DNA of 58,711 nt from a virus (taxonomy: Duplodnaviria; Heunggongvirae; Uroviricota; Caudoviricetes), in IMG/VR virus record IMGVR_UViG_2925891887_000002; one strand, given 5' to 3'. Below are positions 586 through 57,293 of the stretch, in pieces; position 1 is the first letter of the stretch, and each line of letters starts with the position of its first letter. The position numbers and the translations under genes are program-made. The notes beneath the pieces were generated by a model. It was given only the letters and a program-made list of their open reading frames with translations, was not told the origin of the DNA and ran no database searches.

Positions 586-3500
586 TATGCAAGCCTCACA
601 ATATAGTTAAATGCGATGTTTTTGACGGTGTTTTCCGCGTTACCAGCAGCGTTAACGGTGATGGTGTGTCCATGTGAACCAATCGCAACGGAGTGCGTAT
701 GAGCACCAATACCGACAGTATGCGCGTGTGCACCTGCAGATGCTGCTGTGCCGGACAGTGAGTGGCTATGATTACCATCTGTACTGGTATTAGCTAACCA
801 CCCCGTAGACATACCTACTGAGCCTTGTACACCCCAGGTATTTTGACCTGAGCTTGTATAACCATATTGATAAGTATCTTTAAAAACACTGGGGTTAAAT
901 CGACGGCCATCTCTATGGCTGTGATTACCAGCTGCATTCGTGCTGCCACTTAAACTATGGGTATGCGCACCAGTGTTATTCGTGGATTTAGTGCCGTAAT
1001 CAAACGACGATGTGGTTTTCGTCCCCAAATCCGTACTGGATGCGCTGGCGCTGTGGGTATGCGATTTAATGCCGTCCTGTTCCTGAGACAATACGGCCCG
1101 ACCACTGGTAGGTTTGCCCTTAATCGTCCAGCCACGCATATCAGGGATCACGCCTGACGGATAAGCCGCTGCAAGTTTCGGGTATGCAGATTTGTCAAAA
1201 GTCTGCCCCTGCATCAGGGCATAGCCAGACGGAACGGTATCTGATGGCCACGGGATTGGTGCACCGACTGGATAAAACTCTGCAGGAGGATGAGCCGAGG
1301 TGTAAAGCTGCGCCCACGGCGACCAGTTTGCGTCGGTCGTATCCCGTCGTGAACGAATAAATGCCGGAGCATGAGCACCGCTTGTACCACTCCAGCCGAT
1401 GAGTAACTCACCTTCGCCAACGGCTGTCATCCCTTTCAGGTGAATGATATTTCCATACGCTGTTGGATATCCGTTGTTATACACCTCGTATAACTCAAGA
1501 CCTGTTGCCCCCTGCGTATTGTCTGTCAGCGCGGTTACCCGACCTTTTGAAGACAGATTAACTGATGATACTGCTGTTCCACCTGACGGTAACGCCCCGA
1601 TCTCTGATGCCGTTGGCTTATTTCTGGAGTTATAGTCCCTTCGCCAGCCAGGTGAATAATCTGTTCCGTGATTAATATAGGTAAACTGGGCGTTAGTTGT
1701 TCCACCACCAGTGGAGGTGGTCGGTGTGGTAATGCGGATCGTCATCGCTGACTTTATCCCCATTACTTCAATGACAGCTCCGGCGAGATGAATATTACCG
1801 CAGTCAGTATCAGTAATGATTTTATTATTGCCATAAGACCAGGAACCCTTGCACATCCAGTAGGGATGGTTAAATGCTCCCTGAGAATCCAGCCACTCGA
1901 TAAACTGTGCAGTCGTCCAGTTTCCTGTTATTGTGCTTACTGACCCACCAAAGGCACGGCAGGCACCAATATTTTTCGTAAAGGTGTCTTTGCCAGGGAT
2001 ATCCGCACCGTTCTGATCTTTCTGCAGACGTTTCTCAGCATTGTCATAGGCTGTTTTTACTGCCTTTGGTGTCGCGGCAAGCGTTTCAGACGTGCTGTTG
2101 GTCGCGCTGCTTAGCTGGATTATCCCTTTCTGTGCTGTCGTTGCATCCTGTGCGGTGTATTTCCCGTTAGCCAGGTCATACGCGGCCTTAACGGCTTTTG
2201 GTGTTGCCGCCAGTGACTCGGAAGTGCTGTTAGTCGCACTACTGAGCTGTACTATCCCCTTTTTCGTCGTGCTCGCATCCTCAAGCGCCACAGCGGATGC
2301 AATATCCTCTGCCCGTTTTGCCGCTGTCTCGGCGCGCGTTGCCGCGGTTTCTGCCGTACTTTTGCTCTGTGCTGCCGCTGTCGCACTGCCAGCAGCCTCT
2401 GTCGCCTTCGTGGATGCTGTCGTGGCGCTGCCCTTCGCTGCTGACGCCTGTCTGGTCGCCTCATCTTTTGAAGCTGACGCCGATGATGCCGATGAAGCCG
2501 CCGAACTGGCGGACGATGCGGCAGCCGTTTTTGAGGATTCTGCGCTGGTTTCCGACGCTTTCGCGTTCGTCTCGGATGTCTTCGCTGCGGAAGCAGACCT
2601 CGCTGCTGCACTGGCCTGTTCAGTGGCTTCGCCAGCCTTCGTTGTGGCTGTTGAAGCAGACGAGGCGGCACTTTCTGCCGACTTTCCGGCAGCGGTGGCA
2701 CTGGCTGAGGCCTGCCCGGCACTTGTTGAGGCGGCACTGGCAGATGATGCAGCCGCTGTTTTTGAGCCTGCCGCAGCTGAGGCACTCTGTCCCGCTGCCG
2801 TTTCAGAAGACCTGGCGTTCGTCTCAGACGTCTTTGCCGCCTTCGCGGAATTTCCTGCCGCCGTTGCCGAGGAAGCGGCACTACTGGCGCTTGATGATGC
2901 GTTCGTTTCTGATGATTTCGCTGCCTCTTTTGAGGCCGCCGCATCCCGGGCTGAGGTGGCAGCTTCTGACGCCTTTGTGGTCGCTGCGGATGCAGAAGTG
3001 GCTGCAGATTTTTGTGACGCTGCCGCATTCGTTTCTGACGTTTTCGCCGCACCGGCACTGGTAGCTGCCGCGCTTTTTGAGGACTCTGCAGCGGCAGCAC
3101 TTTTTGATGCTTCAGTAGCCTTTGTTGATGCCGTTCCTGCGCTGGAAGACGCTGACTGAGCCGACGTCGCGGCCTGCCCGGCTGATGTGCTGGCTGCGCG
3201 TGCTGAGCCTGCAGCATCAGTCGCATGGGTTGCCGCCTCACGTGCTGATGTGCCGGCATCGCTGGCTGACTTCTTCGCGGCTGCCGTGTTCTGTGCCACC
3301 GCGGACGCGTTACGCGCCACCTCTTCCACCATCAGTTCAAAACGGCGCAGTGCCTCCGGACGGGCATCATCCTCCGTCATGGCACCGAGAAAATCATTCA
3401 GCGTACCGGGTCGGGAATCTTCATACACGGTGATGGTCCCGGCATGTGACGGCGGGAATCCTTCCACCAACAGAATAACGCTGTACTGACCGTACTCAAC

Positions 3501-4390: not shown

Positions 4391-7300
4391 TCAACGAATA
4401 CTGATGCCGGAAGCGGCTTTTTTGGTCACAATCACCGTACAGTCGGTGATATTGCCTGCCCCCTGATTGCCTTTCTGGAAAATCTTAAACTCCAGAGTGA
4501 CGCTTCCCCTGCCACTCGGCATATCAATAACTGCACTGTAACTACCGGGAATGGCCCCTTTAGTTTCTCTGGATGCGATTAATACGCCGTTTTTGCGAAC
4601 TTCAAAACCATAACCCGTGTATCGCGTGCCTCCTGGGTTATTTCCGCTCCCCGGATCGTCATACGCTATACCGTTAAAAATAATGGGCGGAATAATAATC
4701 TGGCGGTCAAAGTTATGATCATCGCTGATGGTGACTGTAACCGTACCGTTTGGTGTTTCCGTGTTACCCCACGTACCGACTTTTTTCGGGAAGGCTTTTG
4801 ATACAGCTTTAACGAAATCTCCTCTGACCTGGGTCGCCTCCAGCATGCCCTTAATCGTACAGTTCTGGTTAATCGTGACATTGTTGAGCGTTCCTGAGTT
4901 CGCATTCACACTGCCACTGATATCCACATTTTTCGCCGTCAGTCTCCCGTCTGATGTCAGGGAAAATGCCGGAGGATTACCGCCGCTGGTAATGGTGGGG
5001 GCCGTCAGGCGTTTCAGGAACACTTCATTCATGAATATCTGATCGCCCTGACCAACAAACATCGGCTTTGTGTTGCCATTCGCAGGATTAATCATCGCAA
5101 TCCTGTCTGCTGCCAGCAGCACCTGACTCTGCATGCCGTCAGGGGTGTTCTCAATACCGGCACCGATACCCGCAATATAAAGGCGTCCGTCCTGCATCTG
5201 CTGCAGCTTCACTGCCCACATGCTGTTCAGGTTATTATTTGTATCAACCTGAACCTTCTGTATCTGCTGGATCGCTGCACTCTGGTCTTCCAGTTTCTTA
5301 TTGACGGTCTGTGTTATTTCATTGCTGACATCCGTTATGGACGTCCTGATTTCAGTCAGGTCAGGCGCAAGCTGACCGTTATCAATCTGCGTCCACAGCT
5401 CCTGAGCCAGATGGGTTTTCCCTATCTCGCCTTTGAAAAAATCCAGATAGCCTGATGCATCATCACTCGGCTGACCGACAGCCTCCACGAATGCCGATTT
5501 GCCAACGGTGTTCACACTGCGAACGTAAAAATAATAATCATGGCCCGGTTTGATATTGATACTGGCGGCTATCCAGTACAGTGCCGTACCAAGATAACGC
5601 GCGCTGGTTTCAACCTGCCTGATATCCGCAATCCGTTTTTCCGAGAACCAGAACTCAAACTGTACCGTCGGGTCATAAACCGCAAGATGCGGCGTGGCGG
5701 TTATCTGAAAATAGCCCGGCGTCAGCTCAATCCGCGACGGCGCTGCCGGTGCGGCAATCCGGAACGATACCGACGCCGGATCGCCCTGCTGCCCCCACGC
5801 ATTTACTGCCCGGACTGTCAGCCTGTAGTTCCCCAGAGCCAGTTGTGTGAAGCGGTAAGTGGTTTCCGTCGTCCGGGCCGTGCTGACCAGCCGCTCACGG
5901 CCGTCATCCGCTGCCACGGTCAGGCGAAGCATAAAGCTCACGCCCTTCACCACCTTCGGCGTGTCCCAGCGGGCCAGTATCTGATACTCCCCGCTGTCTG
6001 CGGTGACTTCGGCAGTCAGGTGCTGCACCGCTGGCGGCGTGACACCATTCACCGTGCCGCTCTGGTCGCCGTCAAAGTGCGCCCCGTTATCCACGATGGC
6101 TTCTTTTTCCGGTACATGCTGCACGGCAGTGATGGCATACGTGCCGTCATCGTTCTCACGGATACTCACACAGCGGAACAGGCGCTGGCGCAACGTCGGC
6201 AACTTCAGCCCCCATACGCTGTATCCGGCAACGCCGTCAGGAACACGGCTCACTTTTACCTTCACGCCGTCGGTGACGGACTGGACCTCCACGCTGACCG
6301 GATTGCCACTTCCGTCAACCAGGCTTATCAGCGTGGTACCGGAGGATGGCAGCGTGATTTCACGGTCGAGCGTCAGCGTCCGGCTCTGGCTGTTCACCGC
6401 CAGCACGCGCCCGCCGGTGCTGATACCGGCATAGTCATCATCGCAGATTTCAATGACATCGCCCGGTACATGGCGAAGCCCTTCAGCCCCCACGCTGAAG
6501 TCCACGGTCTGCGTTTCCAGCAGCTCCGTTTTAATCAGCCACAGCCCGGCGCGATGTGCCTGCCCCCGGCTGGTACAGCCAAAGGCATCCATCTTCGTGA
6601 CGTTACGACCGTAACGGGCAATGGCCTGCGTGTCCTCCACAAGCTCTGTCGCCGTCTCCCAGCCGTTATTCGGGTCAATCCAGTTCACCTCAACGGCATT
6701 ATGGCGGTCCTTCAGGGCGCTGAAGCTGTAGCGGAACGGCGCGCCATCATCCGGCATCACCACATTACTGCGGTTATAGGTCCACACCTTATCTGATGGT
6801 CGGTCCTGCACGAACGTCAGCGTCTGCCCGTTCCATACCGGCATACAGCGCATCGCCGAGCAGAAATCACTGAGCACATCCCACGCCTTGCGCTGTGTGG
6901 TCAGGTACGCATTACAGGTGATGCGCGGCTCCGTGCCGCCAAAGCCGTCCGGCACTGACTGGTCGCAGTACTGGCCGATGACATACAGCGCCCATTTATC
7001 CACGTCCGCCGCACCAAGACGTTTTCCCATGCCGTAGCGCGGATGGGTCAGCATATCCCACAGACACCAGGCCATGTTGTTGCTGTATGCTGGCTTAAAC
7101 GTTCCGTCCCAGATACCGCTGTATTGCCGCGTCTGCGGGTTATAGTTCGACGGCACCTGCAGAATGCGCCCGCGCAGATGATAATTACGGCTCACCTGCT
7201 GGCTGCCGAACTGCTCCGAATCCACCTGCACGCCGACCAGTGCCGTGTTCGGGTAGCACTGTTTCACATCGATGATTTCGGTGTATGACGACCAGAGTGT

Positions 7301-34332: not shown

Positions 34333-34358
<26 letters not shown>

Positions 34359-34878
34359 TCAGCAACCCCGGTATCAGTTCATCCAGCGCGGCTGCTTTGT
34401 TCATGGCTTTGATGATATCCCGTTTCAGGAAATCAACATGTCGGTTTTCCAGTTCCGGAAAACGCCGCTGCACCGACAGGGGGATCCCGTCGAGAATACT
34501 GGCAATTTCACCTGCGATCCGCGACAACACGAAAGTACAGAATGCGGTTTCCACCACTTCAGCGGAGTCTCTGGCATTCTTCAGTTCCTGTGCGTCGGCC
34601 TGCGCACGCGTAAGTCGATGGCGTTCGTACTCAATAGTCCCTGGCTGGAGATCTGCCTCGCTGGCCTGCCGCAGTTCTTCAACCTCCCGGCGCAGCTTTT
34701 CGTTCTCAATTTCAGCATCCCTTTCGGCATACCATTTTATGACGGCGGCAGAGTCATAAAGCGCCTCATTACCCTTGCCACCGCCTCGCAGAACGGGCAT
34801 TCCCTGTTCCTGCCAGTTCTGAATGGTACGGATACTCGCACCGAAAATGTCAGCCAGCTGCTTTTTGTTGACTTCCAT
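34333..34878 (-). CDS. Nu1: Terminase small subunit Nu1
   Basis: 181 aa, lambda Nu1 match. Confidence 0.95.
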
Positions 34879-35541: not shown

Positions 35542-35967
35542 ATGGAAGGTACTACAATGGCTCAGGTTGCCATTTTTAAACAAATATTCGATAAAGTGAG
35601 AAATAATTTAAACTATCACTGGTTTTATTCTGAACTAAAACGTCACAATGTCTCACATTACATTTACTATTTAGCCACAGAGAATATTCATCTTGTTCTT
35701 GAAAACGATAATACGGTTTTAATAAAAGGACAGGGTAAGGTTGTAAATGTAAGATTTTCAAAAAATAAATGCCTTATAGAAGCCACCTTAAAAGGATTCA
35801 AATCAGGAGAGTTATCATTTTACGAATACAGGAAAAATCTTGCTACAGCAGGGGTTTTCAGATGGATTACAAATATCCACGAAAACAAAAGGTATTACTA
35901 TACCTTTGATAATTCATTACTCTTTACTGAGAACATTCAGAACACTACACAAATATTTCCGCACTAA
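35542..35967 (+). CDS. Hypothetical protein in AT-rich cos-proximal region
   Basis: 141-aa ORF; no family recognised. Confidence 0.5.
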
Positions 35968-36253
35968 ATCATAACGTCCGGTTTCTTCCGTGCCAGAACC
36001 GGACTCGCTGGCATGATGAAATATGTGTACCCGGTAACCCCGGTGTGCATCGTTTTTGATTATTCCCACACACTCGCGCAGAAGGAGTTCCCCGTCGGGC
36101 TACGGTCTCTGTTAATACGGGAATACGGCGACGATACAGCGCATGATGTGTCAGGCTTGAATACCTTTATCCTTTAAAAGGGATATCAGTTAAGTTATCC
36201 CGTGTAGGGTATAAGCCATTATCAAGCCCACCCGTAGATAGGCTTTGTAATGG

Positions 36254-36511
36254 CTACTTCGCTTTTGCTTCCGCTCGCTTACGCCGGCGCTCTTCTTTCC
36301 TCTCGGCTTTTGCCATGTCCATGAATGCCTGCATGATCGAGTTCCGCATCATGTAGCTAACAAAGTGATGATTGACACAGCCGTTGAGGCGCAGCTGCTC
36401 GCCAAACTCATCCACCGAGGCCAATGCTTCCATCATGCCCTTCTCGCCTTTCATGAACTCTGAGAAGTCGCGCCCCGCTCTGGAGGCGCATTCAATAACA
36501 CGATCACTCAT
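36254..36511 (-). CDS. Hypothetical protein
   Basis: 85-aa ORF with basic C-terminus. Confidence 0.45.
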   Translation of the reverse strand: MSDRVIECASRAGRDFSEFMKGEKGMMEALASVDEFGEQLRLNGCVNHHFVSYMMRNSIMQAFMDMAKAERKEERRRKRAEAKAK

Positions 36512-37005
36512 CCCGGAAGCCCGGGGATCGTAATCTGCAGCTGGTTAGCCAGGGAGTTAATCTCAGCGACCAACACTGGCTTCGTATAGCGCCATGCTGC
36601 CAGCCCTTGTCCGCAGAAGCTCGCCATGTCTTTCTTCTGGTCAAACTCATGACATTTCATGTTGAGCTGCGCACTTAAGCTGTTGCGATGCTGAAGTTCT
36701 CCGGTGAAGTAGTCATCGAGGACTTTATAGGCCGCGTACTTGAACCCGGGGTTTAACCAAGCCGCATAATCGTAAGCAACAAACTTCCCGCCATATGTTC
36801 CACCGTGTACACCGCGCTCAGTAAAAACCACAGATTCGTGGTTTTTCTCCAGCTCGGCTAAGAACTCTTTGGTCTGCTTGTTTCGCAGGTAGTGGTAAGG
36901 TGATTCAGATTCACTTTTACCACTGGCTTTCCACATATCAGTGAGGCAGATCATGCCATCTTCACCGATACGAATTGGTTGATTGAAGAGGGTTAATGAT
37001 TTCAT
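36508..37005 (-). CDS. KilA-N domain protein
   Basis: 165 aa; N-terminal pattern typical of KilA-N. Confidence 0.6.
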   Translation of the reverse strand: MKSLTLFNQPIRIGEDGMICLTDMWKASGKSESESPYHYLRNKQTKEFLAELEKNHESVVFTERGVHGGTYGGKFVAYDYAAWLNPGFKYAAYKVLDDYFTGELQHRNSLSAQLNMKCHEFDQKKDMASFCGQGLAAWRYTKPVLVAEINSLANQLQITIPGLPG

Positions 37006-37206: not shown

Positions 37207-37665
37207 TTATTTCAGGCATTGCGTCCTGATGTATTCCTGCAGGTAGTTAACCTGCGCGGTTATCTTGTCGATTCCACTTCGGAGACGGTAATAATTGAGT
37301 TCAGCATCTGCTGTAAGTCCTGGGCTTTCTCCATCGCCCATGCCGCTGGCTCCGGTCGTAGACTTTGCACAGGTGGCGGCGACTTGCAGGCGCTTACGCC
37401 CAGCAGAAACATCAGCACGGAGACTTTCGATAGTCGCGTTAGCATCAGCAAGCTCCTTTGTGTATCTTGCGTCGAGTTCTGCTACATCACGTTGACGCTT
37501 CCGCATGTCAGCGATGGTAGCGTTCGCCTTCTCCAGTTCACTGGCCTTGTTATCGCGCTGCTCTTTGTAGGCGATTGCGTTATCACGGTAATGATTAACA
37601 GCCCATGACAGGCAGACGATGATGCAGATAACCAGAGCGGAGATAATCGCGGTTACCCTGCTCAT
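37207..37665 (-). CDS. Rz: Spanin inner-membrane subunit Rz
   Basis: Start at [14 protein letters not shown]; lambda Rz-like. Confidence 0.9.
37260..37451 (-). CDS. Rz1: Spanin outer-membrane lipoprotein Rz1, nested in Rz
   Basis: 63-aa nested ORF with lipobox (VSAC) and Pro-rich region. Confidence 0.75.
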
Positions 37666-38159
37666 TGTTGCCCCCACAAACAGACCTCACGCTCAATCTC
37701 ACGACGAGTCATCAGGCCTTTCCATTGCTTACCGCCAGCGTATGCCCAGCGACGTAGCTGGTCACATGCGCCCTTGATATCGCCCTGGTTTATTTTGCGA
37801 AGAAGAGTAGATGTTCTGAAATTGCCTGCGCCCACGTTATAGACGAACGAGTAAAGAGCGCCGCGCGTTGTTTCCGGTATATCGACTTTGATGTACGGGT
37901 TAATTTGTCTGGCGACCGTGGCAAGGTCTTTATTCAAGAGTGTTTTGCATTCTGCTTTGGTATACGTTTTACCGAGTATGATGTCTTTTCCTGTATGCCC
38001 GTGACATACAGTCCATACACCAACAATATCTTTGTATGGTATGTAGCTGACACCTTCCAGACCATCGTTACCACTTGGGCCAGTAATTAACACTGATGCT
38101 ATAGCAATTGCTCCGCCACCAATAGCAGCAGCAACGGCTTTTCGTAATGATGGAGGCAT
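37662..38159 (-). CDS. R: SAR endolysin (phage 21 R-type lysozyme)
   Basis: 165 aa with Gly/Ala-rich N-terminal signal-anchor-release segment. Confidence 0.85.
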
Positions 38160-38561: not shown

Positions 38562-39149
38562 TTACATCATGTCTTTTTCTAAAAAAAATCTTGATGAATA
38601 TTGATGGGGAGGAACACCAAAATACCTTCTGAAAACACTTACAAAATATGACGTGTTTTCATAACCGCATATCTCAGCAACTTTTCCAACAGAATATAAA
38701 TTGTAGCTTAATAATCTTTCCGCCATCACCATTCGCTCTTCAAGAATTAACTTACTAAATGATAAGCCTTCGTGCTTTAATTTTCTTTTTAACAGACTTT
38801 CACTCAGATACAGTCTTGAAGATATATCACAAAGTCTCCATGCTGCAGATATATCCGTGTGAATAATAGCCTTAACTTTACTTCCTAAACTATTAAGACA
38901 TCCAAATAAAAAACTTTGCACTATTTTCTCTGAAGATAAGATAGCAAGACATGCAAGTGATATTTGATTTCTAACAAAATCCACAGTTCTGCCATCACAA
39001 TTCAAGCATGCAATCAAGTTCTTTAACAATGAAAAATCTTCACATTCCACCATCAAGTATGCCGGATAAAACCTTCTTACAGAAAAAGGTGAGAGTGTGT
39101 TGCTTTTAAAGAAATCATTAACTGTTTTTTCTTCAACATCTACGATCAT
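38562..39149 (-). CDS. AraC-family transcriptional regulator
   Basis: 195 aa; C-terminal AraC-type HTH; AT-rich context. Confidence 0.7.
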   Translation of the reverse strand: MIVDVEEKTVNDFFKSNTLSPFSVRRFYPAYLMVECEDFSLLKNLIACLNCDGRTVDFVRNQISLACLAILSSEKIVQSFLFGCLNSLGSKVKAIIHTDISAAWRLCDISSRLYLSESLLKRKLKHEGLSFSKLILEERMVMAERLLSYNLYSVGKVAEICGYENTSYFVSVFRRYFGVPPHQYSSRFFLEKDMM

Positions 39150-39643
39150 TACATGATCTATATTTGATGAAAAAAATCTTTTAAATTGTAATCAATGAGA
39201 ACAGCATTTCCTTTTTTAAACAAAATATCTTCTTTACCAATTCGGACATCAAACGAATTCAACACCAAAATGATAGAACATATGTATGGCATATTATCCA
39301 CCTGATATCATTGGGGTTACACCAGGTAAGTATAGGTGGAAAATCAATATTCGCCAGTTCAACAATAAGGAAAATTTCATTACATCACAAGTATAAAATT
39401 ATGTATTTAACTCACAAAGACAAATTATTAAACCAATCTGTTATATTATATATAGCTGCGTGGAATCATAATATTATATATTTTGACTGGCATGTTTACC
39501 AACTTTAAGTTGCATCTCAATTGTTTCTTCAGCGTAAACAGAGTTTTTATACAAACTGACACTCTGGGTATCATAGTGTAGTTTTTACGATTGTAAATAT
39601 CCTGCATGCAGGAACTCATCCTTTTGGATGATATCGCATACAA

Positions 39644-40603
39644 TTAATTTACCATCAGTCTTAGAGCCAGTTCGTCCGGATAGGGATCGAAGTAATTCTG
39701 TGTAAGCAAGTAATCATTAGGATACTCACCCAGATAATGCTTCAGCAGAGTCAACGGCGCAAGAAGAGGTAATGTGCCAGAACGATAGTTAAGTATAACC
39801 TCGCTCAACTCTTTACGCTGGCGTGTACTTAAGTAGTTACTAAAATACCCCTGTATATGCATCAGCACATTCGTGTGATTTTTACGTGATGCAGGTTTTC
39901 TGAGAATCGCCATCAGCTTATCACGATACACCTCAAAGTATGATTCAAGGTCCGCCCACTCGTGTATTGCAGCCACAAATGGTCCCATATCTTTATAGCC
40001 TGCCTGACTATGCGCCAACAACTGAAGCTTATAACGACTATGAAAAGCTAATAACTCTCTTCTTGATAATTTCTCCTTGTAAAGGTGATTGAGCTCATGC
40101 AAAGCAAAAACTCTTTCAACAAAATTCTCACGAAGCACTGGATCATGTAATCGCCCATCCTCTTCAACCGGTAGCCAGGAAAACTTTTCCATCAAAGTGC
40201 TCGTAAATAGTCCCACTCCATCTTTACGACCTCGATTACCATTTTCATCATAGACACGCACGCGCTCCATGCCACAGCTGGGAGATTTAGCACAAACCAC
40301 AAACCCCGATACATCCTTTAATTTGTCCATATAAGAACGACTAAACTCTGTCATTCTCTCTGTCACATCCTCATTCTGGTCGTGGCTGAAACACATCCGT
40401 ATATTTCCTTGCATCGAGCGCACAAGACGTAGAGCAGGACGCGGAACTGGCAGCCCTATAGCCATTTCCGGACATACTGGTCTGAATGTTACCCATTCCA
40501 CTAATTTGTCCATTAAAAAGTCAGCTCTTTTGTGACCACCATCAAAACGAACAGCAGAACCGGCCAAACAACCGCTGATTCCAATCACAGGTTTTTTTAT
40601 CAT
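39644..40603 (-). CDS. DUF523/DUF1722 fusion protein (YbgA/TudS-like)
   Basis: 319 aa; Cys-containing N-terminal domain. Confidence 0.6.
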   Translation of the reverse strand: MIKKPVIGISGCLAGSAVRFDGGHKRADFLMDKLVEWVTFRPVCPEMAIGLPVPRPALRLVRSMQGNIRMCFSHDQNEDVTERMTEFSRSYMDKLKDVSGFVVCAKSPSCGMERVRVYDENGNRGRKDGVGLFTSTLMEKFSWLPVEEDGRLHDPVLRENFVERVFALHELNHLYKEKLSRRELLAFHSRYKLQLLAHSQAGYKDMGPFVAAIHEWADLESYFEVYRDKLMAILRKPASRKNHTNVLMHIQGYFSNYLSTRQRKELSEVILNYRSGTLPLLAPLTLLKHYLGEYPNDYLLTQNYFDPYPDELALRLMVN

Positions 40604-40795
40604 ATTCTCCCCCTTGACTAATTCATTAACACATAAACTGTGTAGTGCACGGAATAAATTGCCTTTCTGGCGTCATCACTGACAATTTTTCTGTTATGGA
40701 CTATTCCTAATATAGTATGAAAGTTCTTTAAGTGATCGGTCGTAATCATCTATCTTTCATACTTACTCTCAACTATCAAAAGTACAGGATTTATT

Positions 40796-41320
40796 ATGAA
40801 GTTATGGCCTGTGTTGACTGGCATTGCACTCTCTTTCACTCTTATAGCATGTAAGGCCCCGACACCACCTAAAGGTGTGCAGCCGATTACAAATTTTGAC
40901 GCCAACCGCTACCTCGGAAAATGGTATGAAATAGCTCGCCTCGAGAACCGGTTCGAACGTGGTCTGGAACAGGTCAGCGCTACTTATGGAAAACGGAACG
41001 ACGGAGGGATTCGTGTACTTAACCGTGGATACGATCCAACGAAAAATAAATGGAGCGAGAGCGAAGGTAAAGCATACTTTACTGGAGATACTAAAACTGC
41101 AGCATTGAAGGTTTCGTTTTTTGGCCCCTTCTATGGTGGCTATAATGTAATCAAACTGGATGATGAGTATAAGTATGCTCTTGTCAGTGGTCCGAACAGA
41201 GAATACCTATGGATTCTGGCAAGGACCCCAACTATTCCAGATAAAGTAAAAGCAGACTATGTGCGAACCGCTCAAAAGTTGGGATTCAATGTCAATGAAT
41301 TATTATGGGTTAAACAATAA
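40796..41320 (+). CDS. blc: Bacterial lipocalin (Blc-like outer-membrane lipoprotein)
   Basis: 174 aa; lipobox; NFDANRYLGKWYEIAR and YFGPFYGGYNVI motifs. Confidence 0.8.
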   Translation: MKLWPVLTGIALSFTLIACKAPTPPKGVQPITNFDANRYLGKWYEIARLENRFERGLEQVSATYGKRNDGGIRVLNRGYDPTKNKWSESEGKAYFTGDTKTAALKVSFFGPFYGGYNVIKLDDEYKYALVSGPNREYLWILARTPTIPDKVKADYVRTAQKLGFNVNELLWVKQ

Positions 41321-41475: not shown

Positions 41476-41868
41476 TTATTTCGAACAATCAGCATCCATC
41501 TCCAATCGGAGATCCAACACCATCAGCATACCCTCCACTACGCCCTCAGCTTTCTGAAGCATCCTGCCAACCCAACAATCAGATCGCCCATGCTTACGTG
41601 CAAGCGCCATAAAAGTCATGCCGCCGACATAATAGTCCACCAATAAATCATGCAAATCGCTGTTGTTCTTTTTCAGACGGGCCATGCACCCGCAAATGAT
41701 CATCGCGTCATCGTCACAACATTGTGGGCGAGATTTTACTTTTGAAGGAATTAATCCCTTAAAACCGGCGGCAATGGACGACCAGGTCACATCTTCATGA
41801 TTATTAGCCGCCCACGCTCCCCAACGCTCAAGAACCATCTGAATATCACGCATCAACTTACTCCACAA
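41476..41868 (-). CDS. Q: Late antiterminator Q (DLP12 QuuD-type)
   Basis: 130-aa ORF, close match to QuuD as recalled. Confidence 0.8.
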
Positions 41869-51621: not shown

Positions 51622-51693
51622 GTGCGGTTTTACCGCATACCAATAACGCTTCACTCGAGGCGTTTTTCGTTATGTATAAATAAGGAGCACACC

Positions 51694-51858
51694 ATGCAAT
51701 ATGCCATTGCAGGGTGGCCTGTTGCTGGCTGCCCTTCCGAATCTTTACTTGAACGAATCACCCGTAAATTACGTGACGGATGGAAACGCCTTATCGACAT
51801 ACTTAATCAGCCAGGAGTCCCAAAGAATGGATCAAACACTTATGGCTATCCAGACTAA
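51694..51858 (+). CDS. cIII: cIII
   Basis: 54 aa from MQYAIAGWPVAGCPSES, lambda cIII match. Confidence 0.9.
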   Translation: MQYAIAGWPVAGCPSESLLERITRKLRDGWKRLIDILNQPGVPKNGSNTYGYPD

Positions 51859-51970
51859 ATTCACTATCGCCACTTTTATTGGCGATGAAAAGATGTTTCG
51901 TGAAGCCGTCGACGCTTATAAAAAATGGATATTAATGCTGAAACTGAGATCAAGCAAAAGCATTCACTAA
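51827..51970 (+). CDS. kil: Kil
   Basis: 47 aa from [12 protein letters not shown], lambda Kil match. Confidence 0.8.
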
Positions 51971-52341
51971 CCCCCTTTCCTGTTTTCCTAATCAGCTTGG
52001 CATTTCGCGGGCGATATTTTCACAGCTATTTCAGGAGTTCAGCCATGAACGCTTATTACATTCAGGATCGTCTTGAGGCTCAGAGCTGGGCGCGTCACTA
52101 CCAGCAGATCGCCCGTGAAGAGAAAGAGGCAGAACTGGCAGACGACATGGAAAAAGGCCTGCCCCAGCACCTGTTTGAATCGCTATGCATCGATCATTTG
52201 CAACGCCACGGGGCCAGCAAAAAAGCCATTACCCGTGCGTTTGATGACGATGTTGAGTTTCAGGAGCGCATGGCAGAACACATCCGGTACATGGTTGAAA
52301 CCATTGCTCACCACCAGGTTGATATTGATTCAGAGGTATAA
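51925..52341 (+). CDS. gam: Gam (RecBCD inhibitor)
   Basis: 138 aa, lambda Gam match. Confidence 0.95.
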
Positions 52342-52346
52342 AACGG

Positions 52347-53132
52347 ATGAGTACAGCACTCGCAACGCTGGCAGGGAAGCTGGCTGAACGTGTCGGCATG
52401 GATTCTGTCGACCCACAGGAACTGATCACCACTCTTCGCCAGACGGCATTTAAAGGCGATGCCAGCGATGCGCAGTTCATCGCATTGCTGATCGTCGCCA
52501 ACCAGTACGGCCTTAATCCGTGGACGAAAGAAATTTACGCCTTTCCTGACAAGCAGAACGGCATCGTTCCGGTGGTGGGCGTTGATGGCTGGTCCCGCAT
52601 CATCAATGAAAACCAGCAGTTTGATGGCATGGACTTTGAGCAGGACAATGAATCCTGTACATGCCGGATTTACCGCAAGGACCGCAATCATCCGATCTGC
52701 GTTACCGAATGGATGGATGAATGCCGCCGCGAACCATTCAAAACCCGCGAAGGCAGAGAAATCACGGGGCCGTGGCAGTCGCATCCCAAACGGATGTTAC
52801 GGCATAAAGCCATGATTCAGTGTGCCCGTCTCGCCTTCGGATTTGCTGGTATCTATGACAAGGATGAAGCCGAGCGCATTGTCGAAAATACCGCATACAC
52901 TGCAGAACGTCAGCCGGAACGCGACATCACTCCGGTTAACGATGAAACCATGCAGGAGATTAACACTCTGCTGATCGCCCTGGATAAAACATGGGATGAC
53001 GACTTATTGCCGCTCTGTTCCCAGATATTTCGCCGCGACATTCGTGCATCGTCAGAACTGACACAGGCCGAAGCAGTGAAAGCTCTTGGATTCCTGAAAC
53101 AAAAAGCCACTGAGCAGAAGGTGGCAGCATGA
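52347..53132 (+). CDS. bet: Recombinase Bet
   Basis: 261 aa, lambda Bet match. Confidence 0.95.
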
Positions 53133-53809
53133 CACCGGACATTATCCTGCAGCGTACCGGGATCGACGTGAGAGCTGTCGAACAGGGGGATGATGCATGG
53201 CACAAATTACGGCTCGGCGTCATCACCGCTTCAGAAGTTCACAACGTGATAGCAAAGCCCCGCTCAGGAAAGAAGTGGCCTGACATGAAAATGTCCTACT
53301 TCCACACCCTGCTTGCCGAGGTTTGCACCGGTGTGGCTCCGGAAGTTAACGCTAAAGCACTGGCCTGGGGAAAACAGTACGAGAACGACGCCAGAACCCT
53401 GTTTGAGTTCACTTCCGGCGTGAATGTTATTGAATCCCCGATCATCTATCGCGACGAAAGTATGCGTACCGCCTGCTCTCCCGATGGTTTATGCAGTGAC
53501 GGCAATGGCCTTGAGCTGAAATGCCCGTTTACCTCCCGGGATTTCATGAAGTTCCGGCTCGGTGGTTTCGAGGCCATAAAGTCGGCTTACATGGCCCAGG
53601 TGCAGTACAGCATGTGGGTGACACGAAAAGATGCCTGGTACTTTGCCAACTATGACCCACGTATGAAGCGTGAAGGACTGCATTATGTCGTGGTTGAGCG
53701 GGATGAAAAGTACATGGCGAGTTTTGACGAGATGGTGCCGGAGTTCATCGAAAAAATGGACGAGGCACTGGCTGAAATTGGTTTTGTATTTGGGGAGCAA
53801 TGGCGATGA
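53129..53809 (+). CDS. exo: Lambda exonuclease Exo
   Basis: 226 aa, lambda Exo match. Confidence 0.95.
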
Positions 53810-54542: not shown

Positions 54543-54764
54543 ATGGCAGACATAATTGATTCAACATCAGAAATTGAAGAATTACAGCGCAACACAGCAA
54601 TAAAAATGCGCCGCCTGAACCACCAGGCTATATCTGCCACTCATTGTTGTGAGTGTGGCGATCCGATAGATGAACGAAGACGCCTGGTCGTTCAGGGTTG
54701 TCGGACTTGTGCAAGTTGCCAGGAGGATCTGGAGCTTATCAGTAAACAGAGAGGTTCGAAGTGA
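54543..54764 (+). CDS. TraR/DksA-type C4 zinc-finger protein (lambda orf73-like)
   Basis: 73 aa with CxxC..CxxC. Confidence 0.7.
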   Translation: MADIIDSTSEIEELQRNTAIKMRRLNHQAISATHCCECGDPIDERRRLVVQGCRTCASCQEDLELISKQRGSK

Positions 54765-54974
54765 GCGAAATTAACTAGAAGCCAAAGATAAAATCATCGC
54801 TGAGCAGGAGAAAATCGCTAACGGAGAAAAGACAGTAAGTCAGTATATGAAAACCGCATGATATCATCAGATAAAAATCGGTCGTAAAGCGAAATATTAA
54901 TACCAGAACAAACGAGTCGAGGTAAATTATATTACCTCGATAAATTAACTAAAACTTGCCCGCTATATACTATA

Positions 54975-55577
54975 TCATTCAGTATCATCACGCGCGGTCT
55001 GTGCATATGTCACTACCGCACCTAATATATTAATTTTCTTTTCAACATAGATAATATTATCGTACTCATAATTGCCATACGGATAGCAAATGCGAATATT
55101 CTCATGTAGTTCGGGGTCATCCACCTCAGCTCCAGAACAACTTTTTGAACTACCGGAAGTATACCGATACGGTGCAACATAAGACGATGTCTCTCCAGGC
55201 AAAAAATAAGTTAGTGTCGTAAGGGGTATAATCAGAAAAAATCCAGCAAATATGCACATCCCTGCATAAACCTTAAGGTATGCTGACAGACTCTTCCAGC
55301 CTCTTTGTTTTACTATCCCCTTCTTAACCCAAAACAGAGATAACAGAAAAGCTATTCCCATGCTAAACAGAATGTAATAGTGGGATATACTCTGATTAAG
55401 AAACGTGACCCTGTAGATATCTGCCCGCCACCAGAAGAAAAGGAAAATAAAGATTAGCCCTGAAACTGTCATGCAAATCAAATAAGGATACGAATCTTTT
55501 TTCATGTTTAGCGCCCATAAAATTTTTCCTGACCCGGACAAATTTACCATCCATTTTTTGCGCAGAAAATAGCTCAT
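54975..55577 (-). CDS. Hypothetical polytopic membrane protein (AT-rich accessory gene)
   Basis: 200-aa ORF, several hydrophobic segments, opposite strand to the early operon. Confidence 0.55.
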   Translation of the reverse strand: MSYFLRKKWMVNLSGSGKILWALNMKKDSYPYLICMTVSGLIFIFLFFWWRADIYRVTFLNQSISHYYILFSMGIAFLLSLFWVKKGIVKQRGWKSLSAYLKVYAGMCIFAGFFLIIPLTTLTYFLPGETSSYVAPYRYTSGSSKSCSGAEVDDPELHENIRICYPYGNYEYDNIIYVEKKINILGAVVTYAQTARDDTE

Positions 55578-55819
55578 TACTTACTGCACAATAATACACA
55601 AAATTGCGTAAATTTTTTGCATGGATTTTAGCTCTTTCAGCCGAAATTTAAGGGGTAAATAGCATTTCCTAAAAGCAACTGCACCAACCCAACAGAATGG
55701 GCTACCGCTTACGTTGAGAGCAAAAAAGTGTATAGCAGCAATGAACAGCATCCTCGCACTGACGAGGATTTCTTTTATCTGAACTCGCTACGGCGGGTTT
55801 TGTTTTATGGAGATGATAA

Positions 55820-55987
55820 ATGCACTTCCGAGTCACAGGTGAATGGAATGGAGAACCATTCAACAGAGTTATCGAAGCCGAGAACATCAGCGACTGCTAT
55901 GACCACTGGATGCTGTGGGCGCAGATAGCACATGCAGACGTAACCAATATTCGAATTGAAGAACTGAAAGAACACCAAGCCGCCTGA
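55820..55987 (+). CDS. Lambda orf55-like small protein
   Basis: 55-aa ORF upstream of xis (below track threshold). Confidence 0.5.
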   Translation: MHFRVTGEWNGEPFNRVIEAENISDCYDHWMLWAQIAHADVTNIRIEELKEHQAA

Positions 55988-56026: not shown

Positions 56027-56245
56027 ATGTACTTGACACTTCAGGAGTGGAACGCACGCCAGCGACGCCCAAGAAGCCTTGAAACAGTTCGTCGATGGGT
56101 ACGCGAGTGCAGGATATTCCCTCCTCCGGTTAAGGATGGAAGAGAGTATCTGTTCCACGAATCAGCGGTAAAGGTTGACTTAAATCGACCAGTAACAGGT
56201 AGCCTTTTGAAGAGGATCAGAAATGGGAAGAAGGCGAAGTCATGA
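56027..56245 (+). CDS. xis: Excisionase Xis
   Basis: 72 aa, lambda Xis match. Confidence 0.95.
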   Translation: MYLTLQEWNARQRRPRSLETVRRWVRECRIFPPPVKDGREYLFHESAVKVDLNRPVTGSLLKRIRNGKKAKS

Positions 56246-57293
56246 GCGCCGGGATTTACCCCCTAACCTTTATATAAGAAACAATGGATATTACTGCTAC
56301 AGGGACCCAAGGACGGGTAAAGAGTTTGGATTAGGCAGAGACAGGCGAATCGCAATCACTGAAGCCATACAGGCCAACATTGAGTTATTTTCAGGACACA
56401 AACACAAGCCTCTGACAGCGAGAATCAACAGTGATAATTCCGTTACGTTACATTCATGGCTTGATCGCTACGAAAAAATCCTGGCCAGCAGAGGAATCAA
56501 GCAGAAGACACTCATAAATTACATGAGCAAAATTAAAGCAATAAGGAGGGGTCTGCCTGATGCTCCACTTGAAGACATCACCACAAAAGAAATTGCGGCA
56601 ATGCTCAATGGATACATAGACGAGGGCAAGGCGGCGTCAGCCAAGTTAATCAGATCAACACTGAGCGATGCATTCCGAGAGGCAATAGCTGAAGGCCATA
56701 TAACAACAAACCCTGTCGCTGCCACTCGCGCAGCAAAATCAGAGGTAAGGAGATCAAGACTTACGGCTGACGAATACCTGAAAATTTATCAAGCAGCAGA
56801 ATCATCACCATGTTGGCTCAGACTTGCAATGGAACTGGCTGTTGTTACCGGGCAACGAGTTGGTGATTTATGCGAAATGAAGTGGTCTGATATCGTAGAT
56901 GGATATCTTTATGTCGAGCAAAGCAAAACAGGCGTAAAAATTGCCATCCCAACAGCATTGCATGTTGATGCTCTCGGAATATCAATGAAGGAAACACTTG
57001 ATAAATGCAAAGAGATTCTTGGCGGAGAAACCATAATTGCATCTACTCGTCGTGAACCGCTTTCATCCGGCACAGTATCAAGGTATTTTATGCGCGCACG
57101 AAAAGCATCAGGTCTTTCCTTCGAAGGGGATCCGCCTACCTTTCACGAGTTGCGCAGTTTGTCTGCAAGACTCTATGAGAAGCAGATAAGCGATAAGTTT
57201 GCTCAACATCTTCTCGGGCATAAGTCGGACACCATGGCATCACAGTATCGTGATGACAGAGGCAGGGAGTGGGACAAAATTGAAATCAAATAA
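56223..57293 (+). CDS. int: Lambda integrase Int
   Basis: 356 aa, lambda Int match. Confidence 0.95.
   Translation: MGRRRSHERRDLPPNLYIRNNGYYCYRDPRTGKEFGLGRDRRIAITEAIQANIELFSGHKHKPLTARINSDNSVTLHSWLDRYEKILASRGIKQKTLINYMSKIKAIRRGLPDAPLEDITTKEIAAMLNGYIDEGKAASAKLIRSTLSDAFREAIAEGHITTNPVAATRAAKSEVRRSRLTADEYLKIYQAAESSPCWLRLAMELAVVTGQRVGDLCEMKWSDIVDGYLYVEQSKTGVKIAIPTALHVDALGISMKETLDKCKEILGGETIIASTRREPLSSGTVSRYFMRARKASGLSFEGDPPTFHELRSLSARLYEKQISDKFAQHLLGHKSDTMASQYRDDRGREWDKIEIK

Follow-up and report, generated by a model that had tools for sequence, protein, structure and literature searches.

Few superinfection-exclusion proteins of Gram-negative phages are understood, and SieA, gp15, Imm and Cor each form a family of their own. 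The SieA protein of P22, an inner-membrane protein of 162/164 amino acids with three predicted transmembrane (TM) segments, blocks DNA injection (PMC10883804). The gpA-gpQ interval of P2-like phages, which in P2 holds the genes old and tin, is an experimentally validated anti-phage hotspot (PMC9122126). The P2 hotspot is most often occupied by StbA/StbB plasmid stability (4592 occurrences), and Table S5B of the same study (Rousset et al. 2022) catalogues as system #4 a single protein that has no Pfam domain, is described as '3 TM' and occurs 470 times (PMC9122126). A 2026 follow-up drew eight unknown loci at random from the analogous P4 hotspot and found six of them protective; among unknown P2 proteins, the share predicted as defensive was just 15-32% (PMC13586616).

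The gene described here lies in a window of 58,711 nucleotides, by which we mean the whole stretch of DNA that was analysed. At its right, the window ends with the int-proximal part of a lambda-type prophage, in which int is followed by the host gene ybhC. The features that surround the gene are the following.

51681-51739, plus strand: lambda cIII thermoregulator, an Rfam match in the pL operon
51925-52341, plus strand: gam, a gene of the pL operon
Between gam and exo, plus strand: bet
53129-53809, plus strand: exo
Within the pL operon, plus strand: small orf60a/orf63-like genes
54543-54764, plus strand: gene for a TraR/DksA-type zinc-finger protein
54777-55749, strand not applicable: 973-bp segment without homology to lambda that replaces ea22-ea8.5, from the lambda alignment
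54975-55577, minus strand: maximal open reading frame of 200 codons with an ATG start
55750-55769, plus strand: terminator hairpin of tL4 type that belongs to the pL operon and lies at the right-hand border of the swap; context, outside the cassette defined below
55820-55987, plus strand: ORF55
56027-56245, plus strand: xis
56223-57293, plus strand: int

The match to the cIII thermoregulator confirms the direction of the pL operon, and the membrane-protein gene is antisense to gam, bet, exo, xis and int, all of which are on the plus strand. In the alignment with lambda, homology of 97-98% extends up to 54776 and is found again from 55750, and the segment between these points stands in place of ea22-ea8.5. 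The GC content of the gene is 0.388, versus 0.504 for the whole window, and only 4% of the 531-bp windows in the stretch are as AT-rich; for comparison, GC is 0.382 in the gap at 54765-55819, 0.50 in gam-exo, 0.46 in xis-int and 0.53 in ybhC. The initial annotation had described an AT-rich gene on the strand opposite the early operon, in the region where lambda carries its ea genes, and these observations agree with it on each point. In M60848, a record of phage 434, the tL4 hairpin appears under the name t-L4. A 56-aa open reading frame at 55581-55751 (minus strand), which the annotations of 434 and mEp332 list as another 'putative membrane protein', was rejected: it would start within the tL4 hairpin, the SD-like bases are followed by no spacing, and P2-type cassettes do not conserve it. 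It is probably not a gene. Phage 434 has an additional 345-nt ORF114 between ORF55 and xis (2817-3161 of the 434 record; about 55996 in the window), which is missing from this prophage and from mEp332 and marks a second small indel hotspot beside the cassette.

Elsewhere in the window, a second AT-rich cargo block at 38562-41320, between Q (41476-41868, minus strand) and the lysis genes, has the look of a further moron cluster and occupies the site at which toxin genes are found in Stx phages.

38562-39149, minus strand: AraC-family regulator, local GC about 0.30
39644-40603, minus strand: 2-thiouracil-desulfurase/DUF1722 protein
40796-41320, plus strand: Blc-like lipocalin

AT-rich genes also lie at 35542-37005, between Rz (37207-37677) and the small terminase gene nu1 (34333-34878).

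35542-35967, plus strand: DUF1398 gene, AT-rich
36508-37005, minus strand: KilA-N/ORF11CD3 gene

Far to the left, Rfam matched the IS009 sRNA at 44-242 on the minus strand (223.6 bits); no Rfam RNA family matched in the cassette region.

Gene callers disagree on where the protein starts, giving products of 81, 112, 176, 188, 191 or 200 amino acids (PGAP and the mEp332 record annotate 200, the phage 434 record 188), and the ribosome-binding site ahead of M25 is weak in the window. Both observations would fit a chance open reading frame or a decaying remnant in AT-rich filler that holds no functional gene. The probability of that explanation is vanishingly small in our judgement, and conservation already effectively refutes it. 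Comparison with a Salmonella allele of 70% identity gives a dN of 0.20 and a dS of about 1.8-2.0, and the resulting ratio of about 0.1 indicates purifying selection and thus a genuine protein-coding gene. Full-length homologues occur in at least five genera, 30 columns are invariant across 21 sequences, and the structure model described below is confident. At this composition, the random-codon stop frequency of about 6.6% gives a probability of about 1e-6 for 200 open codons, by our own arithmetic. The reading frame is intact even where it is under-called: the calls of 81-112 aa and the 90-aa PHROG 1416 profile cover part of an intact frame, and we set aside the 112-aa and 90-aa versions as gene-calling artefacts.

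All 20 aligned homologues begin at the residue that matches M25 (MKKxSYP). At the position of M1, the Salmonella P2-type copy reads ATG-TAG, and the E. coli P2-type copy has no ATG there and carries an in-frame stop four codons ahead of MKKDS. Because the homologues all start at M25 and the 24 upstream codons are closed by stops in these two P2-type copies, the protein is most likely 176 aa long. Judged from these alignments, the true product is most likely encoded at 55505..54975 with its start at M25, and the 24-codon extension is probably left untranslated. The initial annotation had proposed a 200-aa polytopic protein; the membrane protein with three TM helices is retained, and the length of 200 aa is not.

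54975-55505, minus strand: coding sequence of 176 aa, most likely, stop codon included, from homologue starts, the AlphaFold model and dN/dS
55506-55577, minus strand: 24-codon 5' extension, not conserved, which holds a candidate promoter

To model the protein, we ran AlphaFold (AF2) with an 18-sequence alignment and also modelled the C-terminal 79 residues alone. The full protein reached a pLDDT of 83, and the C-domain alone reached 90. In the model of the 176-aa protein, helices at approximately residues 5-31, 38-61 and 70-101 precede five strands in residues 105-171, which form a five-strand beta-barrel, a soluble beta domain of about 75 aa. Hydropathy backs the three TM segments seen in the AF2 model, and the assignment of a 176-aa inner-membrane protein with three TM helices is strongly supported. 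Family-wide, the N-terminus and the TM2-TM3 loop together hold 6.2 Lys and Arg residues in about 22 residues, versus 1.9 in 14 for the TM1-TM2 loop, and the C-domain is net acidic across the family. The C-domain has exactly two cysteines in 18 of 18 members, Cys123 and Cys140, which flank the beta2-beta3 hairpin and probably form one disulfide. The positive-inside counts, the acidic C-domain and the two fixed cysteines point to an N-in topology; this predicted topology would put the N-terminus and the TM2-TM3 loop in the cytoplasm, with the barrel and the conserved loop 1 (WWRxxIYRVTFL) on the periplasmic side. Conservation is 0.71 in the C-domain and 0.65 in loop 1, versus 0.42-0.43 in TM2 and TM3, so that by the predicted topology conservation is greatest on the periplasmic side and smallest in TM2 and TM3. 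A lipoprotein or signal peptide was rejected (no lipobox is present and Cys11 is not conserved), as was a holin, for which the location is wrong and the extra domain is out of place.

A small protein with three hydrophobic helices could also be a stand-alone abortive-infection effector that, upon infection, permeabilises or depolarises the inner membrane and kills the cell ahead of phage completion in the manner of RexB or other TM effectors, and TM proteins in hotspot systems are usually read as suicide effectors (PMC9122126). We consider such an effector quite improbable. The gene stands singly, with no partner sensor in lambdoid, P2 or chromosomal settings, its product has no cytoplasmic domain with which to sense infection, and conservation is concentrated in parts with a predicted periplasmic location and is lowest in TM2 and TM3. 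Lacking a cytoplasmic domain, the protein could sense or block only events at the envelope.

Searches of Pfam, NCBIfam, PADLOC and PDB sequences gave no match above noise, and no family among the PADLOC-DB v2.0.0 defence models matched at E<=1. With Foldseek, the best hit of the full model in PDB had an E value of 0.14 and was NTF2/cystatin-like noise, and the best in BFVD had an E value of 0.018, all of the BFVD hits being uncharacterised. The fold searches returned weak OB-like matches only, and small membrane-tethered OB-like barrels, namely DUF1093/YxeA (3npp), BcR97A (2k5q) and YhhM/DUF2500 (3q6c), are among the closest known structures. PHROG 1416, whose function is not annotated, matched residues 113-200 of the 200-aa reading frame with an E value of 1.2e-50. 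An exhaustive HMMER profile search of 1.84 billion representatives yielded 61 clusters with no annotated relatives; a 3074-aa match, P0122, was dismissed as a low-complexity repeat protein. A word-indexed search found 74 proteins, with Escherichia, Shigella, Salmonella, Enterobacter, Klebsiella and Cedecea as the named sources. From these searches the family is tiny and restricted to enterobacteria, and its relatives are uncharacterised. No functional study of the protein was found in the literature by accession or keyword, and a paper on the svsR sRNA (PMC12803456) showed no connection to the locus.

The initial annotation had also raised host-surface modification. P22-like phages carry gtrABC beside int and xis, and this shared position is the one point in favour of a surface-modifying enzyme or flippase that acts on O-antigen or LPS. 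The searches, however, returned no GtrA, glycosyltransferase or acyltransferase match, the soluble part is an OB-like barrel of about 70 aa with no catalytic-looking or enzyme-like domain, and the gene is single. We therefore dropped surface modification as very improbable.

Comparison with P2-like prophages of E. coli defined a unit larger than the gene, the core mobile cassette, which spans 137 bp upstream, the gene, and 90 bp downstream that include a hairpin.

54885-55642, minus strand: core mobile cassette of 758 bp (upstream region, gene and 3' hairpin), common with E. coli P2-like prophages
55585-55611, minus strand: three direct repeats, TTACGCA, TTGTGTA and TTGTGCA, with a 10-bp period, upstream of the candidate promoter
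55541-55549, minus strand: candidate extended -10 element TGGTAAATT, at consensus level only
54917-54940, minus strand: terminator-like hairpin with a 9-bp stem, -12.3 kcal/mol and a weak T tract, 35 nt past the stop codon

The cassette is 76.7% identical in DNA to the E. coli P2-type copy over 761 columns (locus L028, 6672-7427). The predicted transcription start lies near 55534, 29 nt ahead of the ATG and within the spurious 5' extension. A TGnTAnnnT element is found at -44 to -48 from the ATG in five independent contexts (lambdoid, E. coli P2, two Salmonella P2 and Cedecea); a generic promoter scan did not call the candidate extended -10. The repeats are kept as three copies of TTGTGCA in the E. 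coli and Salmonella P2-type copies (L028, about 6700-6735, and a Salmonella locus, L005, about 5865-5900). The record of phage 434 assigns two of the three repeats to a CII site. CII-activated promoters of the pRE, pI and paQ type carry TTGC-N6-TTGC around the -35 position. Positions 55601-55588 contain TTGT-N6-TTGT, and the sequence 12-13 nt further on, where a -10 should lie, is a poor one (GAGCTA/AGCTAT); to our knowledge, P2-like phages encode no CII homologue. The stem of the 3' hairpin is kept in the E. coli P2-type copy with one compensatory change from A-T to G-C.

The 434 genome paper reported that morons are where these phages differ (PMC9119081). At the present locus, the extended -10-like element and the hairpin with its weak T tract travel together with the gene, the homology boundaries are sharp, presence is patchy, and GC is 0.38 versus 0.50. 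The cassette is present in 434, mEp332 and 2B8, and ea22/ea8.5 occupy the equivalent site of lambda. The best explanation of these sequence features is that the locus is a moron, a self-contained unit antisense to pL between the TraR-like gene and ORF55/xis.

Near-identical copies (97.5-99%) occupy the same site in phages 434, mEp332 and 2B8. The same allele is found in 915 of 5426 complete E. coli genomes (about 17%), including O157:H7 EC4115 and EDL933, and any allele in 980 of the 5426 (about 18%); the E. coli copies adjoin ybhC where checked. In four genera, P2-like prophages carry diverged alleles in the interval from the portal gene gpQ to the replication gene gpA, with identities of 70% and 58% in Salmonella, 55% in Klebsiella michiganensis, 78% in E. 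coli and 58% in Enterobacter hormaechei. The E. coli P2-type allele (78%) is very widespread, and the homologue is often nearly the sole cargo of the gpA-gpQ interval. The present copy lies between the TraR-like gene and xis and not in gpA-gpQ; location is not a property of the protein family. Some metagenomic contigs also carry the gene, in contexts that are uninformative. Overall, comparison of these contexts strongly supports movement of the cassette among lambdoid phages, the P2-like gpA-gpQ hotspot and chromosomes. The proposal in the initial annotation that this is a horizontally acquired accessory gene is borne out by the cassette itself, which is 77% DNA-identical in E. coli P2-like prophages, by the diverged copies in Salmonella, Klebsiella and Enterobacter, and by the unrelated genes that lambda has at the site.

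The P2 contexts held further cargo, and none of the neighbours in them matched PADLOC. In a common E. coli P2-like prophage, the convergent neighbour of the homologue is an Ead/Ea22-domain gene (L028, 7477-7812), a member of the family that the cassette displaces in lambda, and StbA/StbB plasmid-stability genes adjoin; this arrangement hints that a larger block may be swapped between lambdoid and P2-like phages. In a Klebsiella michiganensis P2-like prophage, the homologue shares the gpA-gpQ interval with an adjoining two-gene unit (L017, 2281-5623). One of its products has 790 aa and matches AAA_16 weakly, the other has 279 aa; PADLOC matched neither, and the unit may be an uncatalogued defence system. 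Genes of 81 and 119 aa upstream in some Salmonella P2 loci were judged not to be part of the unit, being GC-rich and missing elsewhere.

Orthologues were also found on chromosomes, with host-like GC of 0.52-0.55, in fixed non-prophage neighbourhoods of Enterobacter, Klebsiella and Cedecea; the one in Enterobacter lies 17 bp past a LysR gene. Their ameliorated GC and fixed settings suggest a cellular role. The product could accordingly be a lysogenic-conversion or host-physiology factor unrelated to phages, whose periplasmic barrel would modulate a host envelope component such as a transporter, serve as an envelope-stress sensor, or act as orphan immunity against a contact-dependent toxin or a bacteriocin that acts on the membrane or in the periplasm, and which would be carried for the benefit of the lysogen. 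The strong purifying selection, the conservation of the periplasmic domain across genera and the abundance of non-defence cargo in the P2 hotspot are in line with such a role, as is the architecture of pore-forming colicin immunity proteins, which are likewise small, have three or four TM segments and lie antisense to their neighbours. However, neither a colicin-immunity match nor any other Pfam or NCBIfam match was obtained, no toxin gene adjoins the gene in any context examined, and the phage-borne copies recur at known exclusion-gene sites. We regard a host factor of this kind as the main rival to exclusion of phages, and as rather unlikely.

The proposal that we prefer is exclusion of other phages at the envelope. 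With pL silent in the lysogen, the gene would be transcribed from its own candidate promoter. The periplasmic face of the protein would then block an envelope step in infection by other phages, the likeliest being the transit of the incoming genome through the periplasm and inner membrane, the step at which SieA of P22 works, and it might do so by binding the incoming DNA-delivery apparatus or the host inner-membrane component on which that apparatus relies. The outcome would be superinfection exclusion without cell death. Superinfection exclusion was a suggestion of the initial annotation as well; it is plausible, and the evidence for it is circumstantial, consisting of the gpA-gpQ position, the predicted periplasmic domain and the antisense placement typical of lysogen-expressed genes. 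This proposal is the best supported because the protein has no cytoplasmic domain, presents its conserved surface to the periplasm by the predicted topology, has no partner gene, could be expressed with pL off, and recurs at exclusion-gene sites.

Several observations speak against exclusion, among them the chromosomal orthologues with ameliorated GC. The protein matches neither the PADLOC v2 models nor SieA. The case is also weakened because hotspot position is not proof: StbA/StbB is the commonest occupant, and 15-32% is the predicted defensive share among the P2 unknowns. Moreover, the periplasmic domain is strongly conserved, with dN/dS of about 0.1, and is in this respect unlike fast-diversifying binders of phage parts. 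Proteins that bind phage parts often diversify fast, and SieA types are less than 30% identical. Weighing both sides, we place the probability that the gene is a moron which the lysogen expresses and which counters superinfecting phages at the envelope somewhat below an even chance. A bolder version is tentative and, to us, doubtful: that the gene represents a new single-protein family of envelope anti-phage barriers, common to lambdoid and P2-like prophages and found in phage 434, in O157:H7 and in about 18% of the complete E. coli genomes. In this family a disulfide-bonded periplasmic OB-like barrel would jam genome delivery by unrelated phages, with expression perhaps controlled through the TTGTGCA repeats.

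The gene is common (915-980 of 5426 complete E. coli genomes), it is carried by O157:H7 and by phage 434, one of the founding models of molecular biology, and its relatives are among the most frequent occupants of the P2 defence hotspot outside the tested systems. The 758-bp cassette is definable for direct cloning. If the protein is protective, it bears on phage-therapy predictions of host range for E. coli, Salmonella and Klebsiella; if it is not, the chromosomal orthologues indicate another envelope function. The gene had been annotated before as hypothetical, and its P2-borne relatives had been catalogued. The present analysis adds a corrected start, a model of topology and fold, the limits of the cassette, and the connection of the 434 gene to the family in the P2 hotspot.

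Comparison with the described systems places the protein near several of them in kind. The genes ea22 and ea8.5 of lambda occupy lambda's equivalent of the swap site, but they encode unrelated soluble proteins and lie on the pL strand. The old and tin genes of P2 are exclusion genes expressed in the lysogen at the P2 site where the homologues sit; their products are likewise unrelated and soluble. HK97 gp15 and other injection-blocking morons (Cumby et al.; PMC3594210) share the moron architecture, the inner-membrane location and expression from the prophage. The gp15 gene, however, lies in the tail-gene region, and the PHROG search with the window protein matched only phrog_1416. SieA resembles the present protein in its three TM segments, its similar size and its antisense orientation to the flanking genes, and it has its own promoter, is expressed by the prophage and suffices alone. 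In an hhalign comparison, by contrast, the probability of a relationship with SieA was 0.2%, and the SieA motif FxRYPxEAxxFNK was absent. That conserved motif is predicted to be cytoplasmic, whereas the conserved soluble domain of the window protein is a predicted periplasmic beta-barrel. Given the absence of homology and the cytoplasmic placement of the SieA motif, the likeness to SieA is one of kind and not of family.

The closest relationship is with system #4, a homologue with 51% identity to the window protein over 168 aa (BLASTP E 7e-56); PHROG 1416 represents the same family. The family motifs are absent from the tested-system tables S2A and S2B of Rousset et al., in which study the family is catalogued only. 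System #4 differs in its site, the gpA-gpQ interval of P2-like myoviruses versus the lambdoid ea region, and is a different allele. It has in common with the window protein the three TM helices, the CSGA...ICYP barrel, the single-gene organisation and the lack of a Pfam domain. Finally, gp36 of phage 434 (CPT_434_36, 'putative membrane protein') and the genes of mEp332, 2B8 and the ybhC site of O157:H7 are the same gene at the same site.
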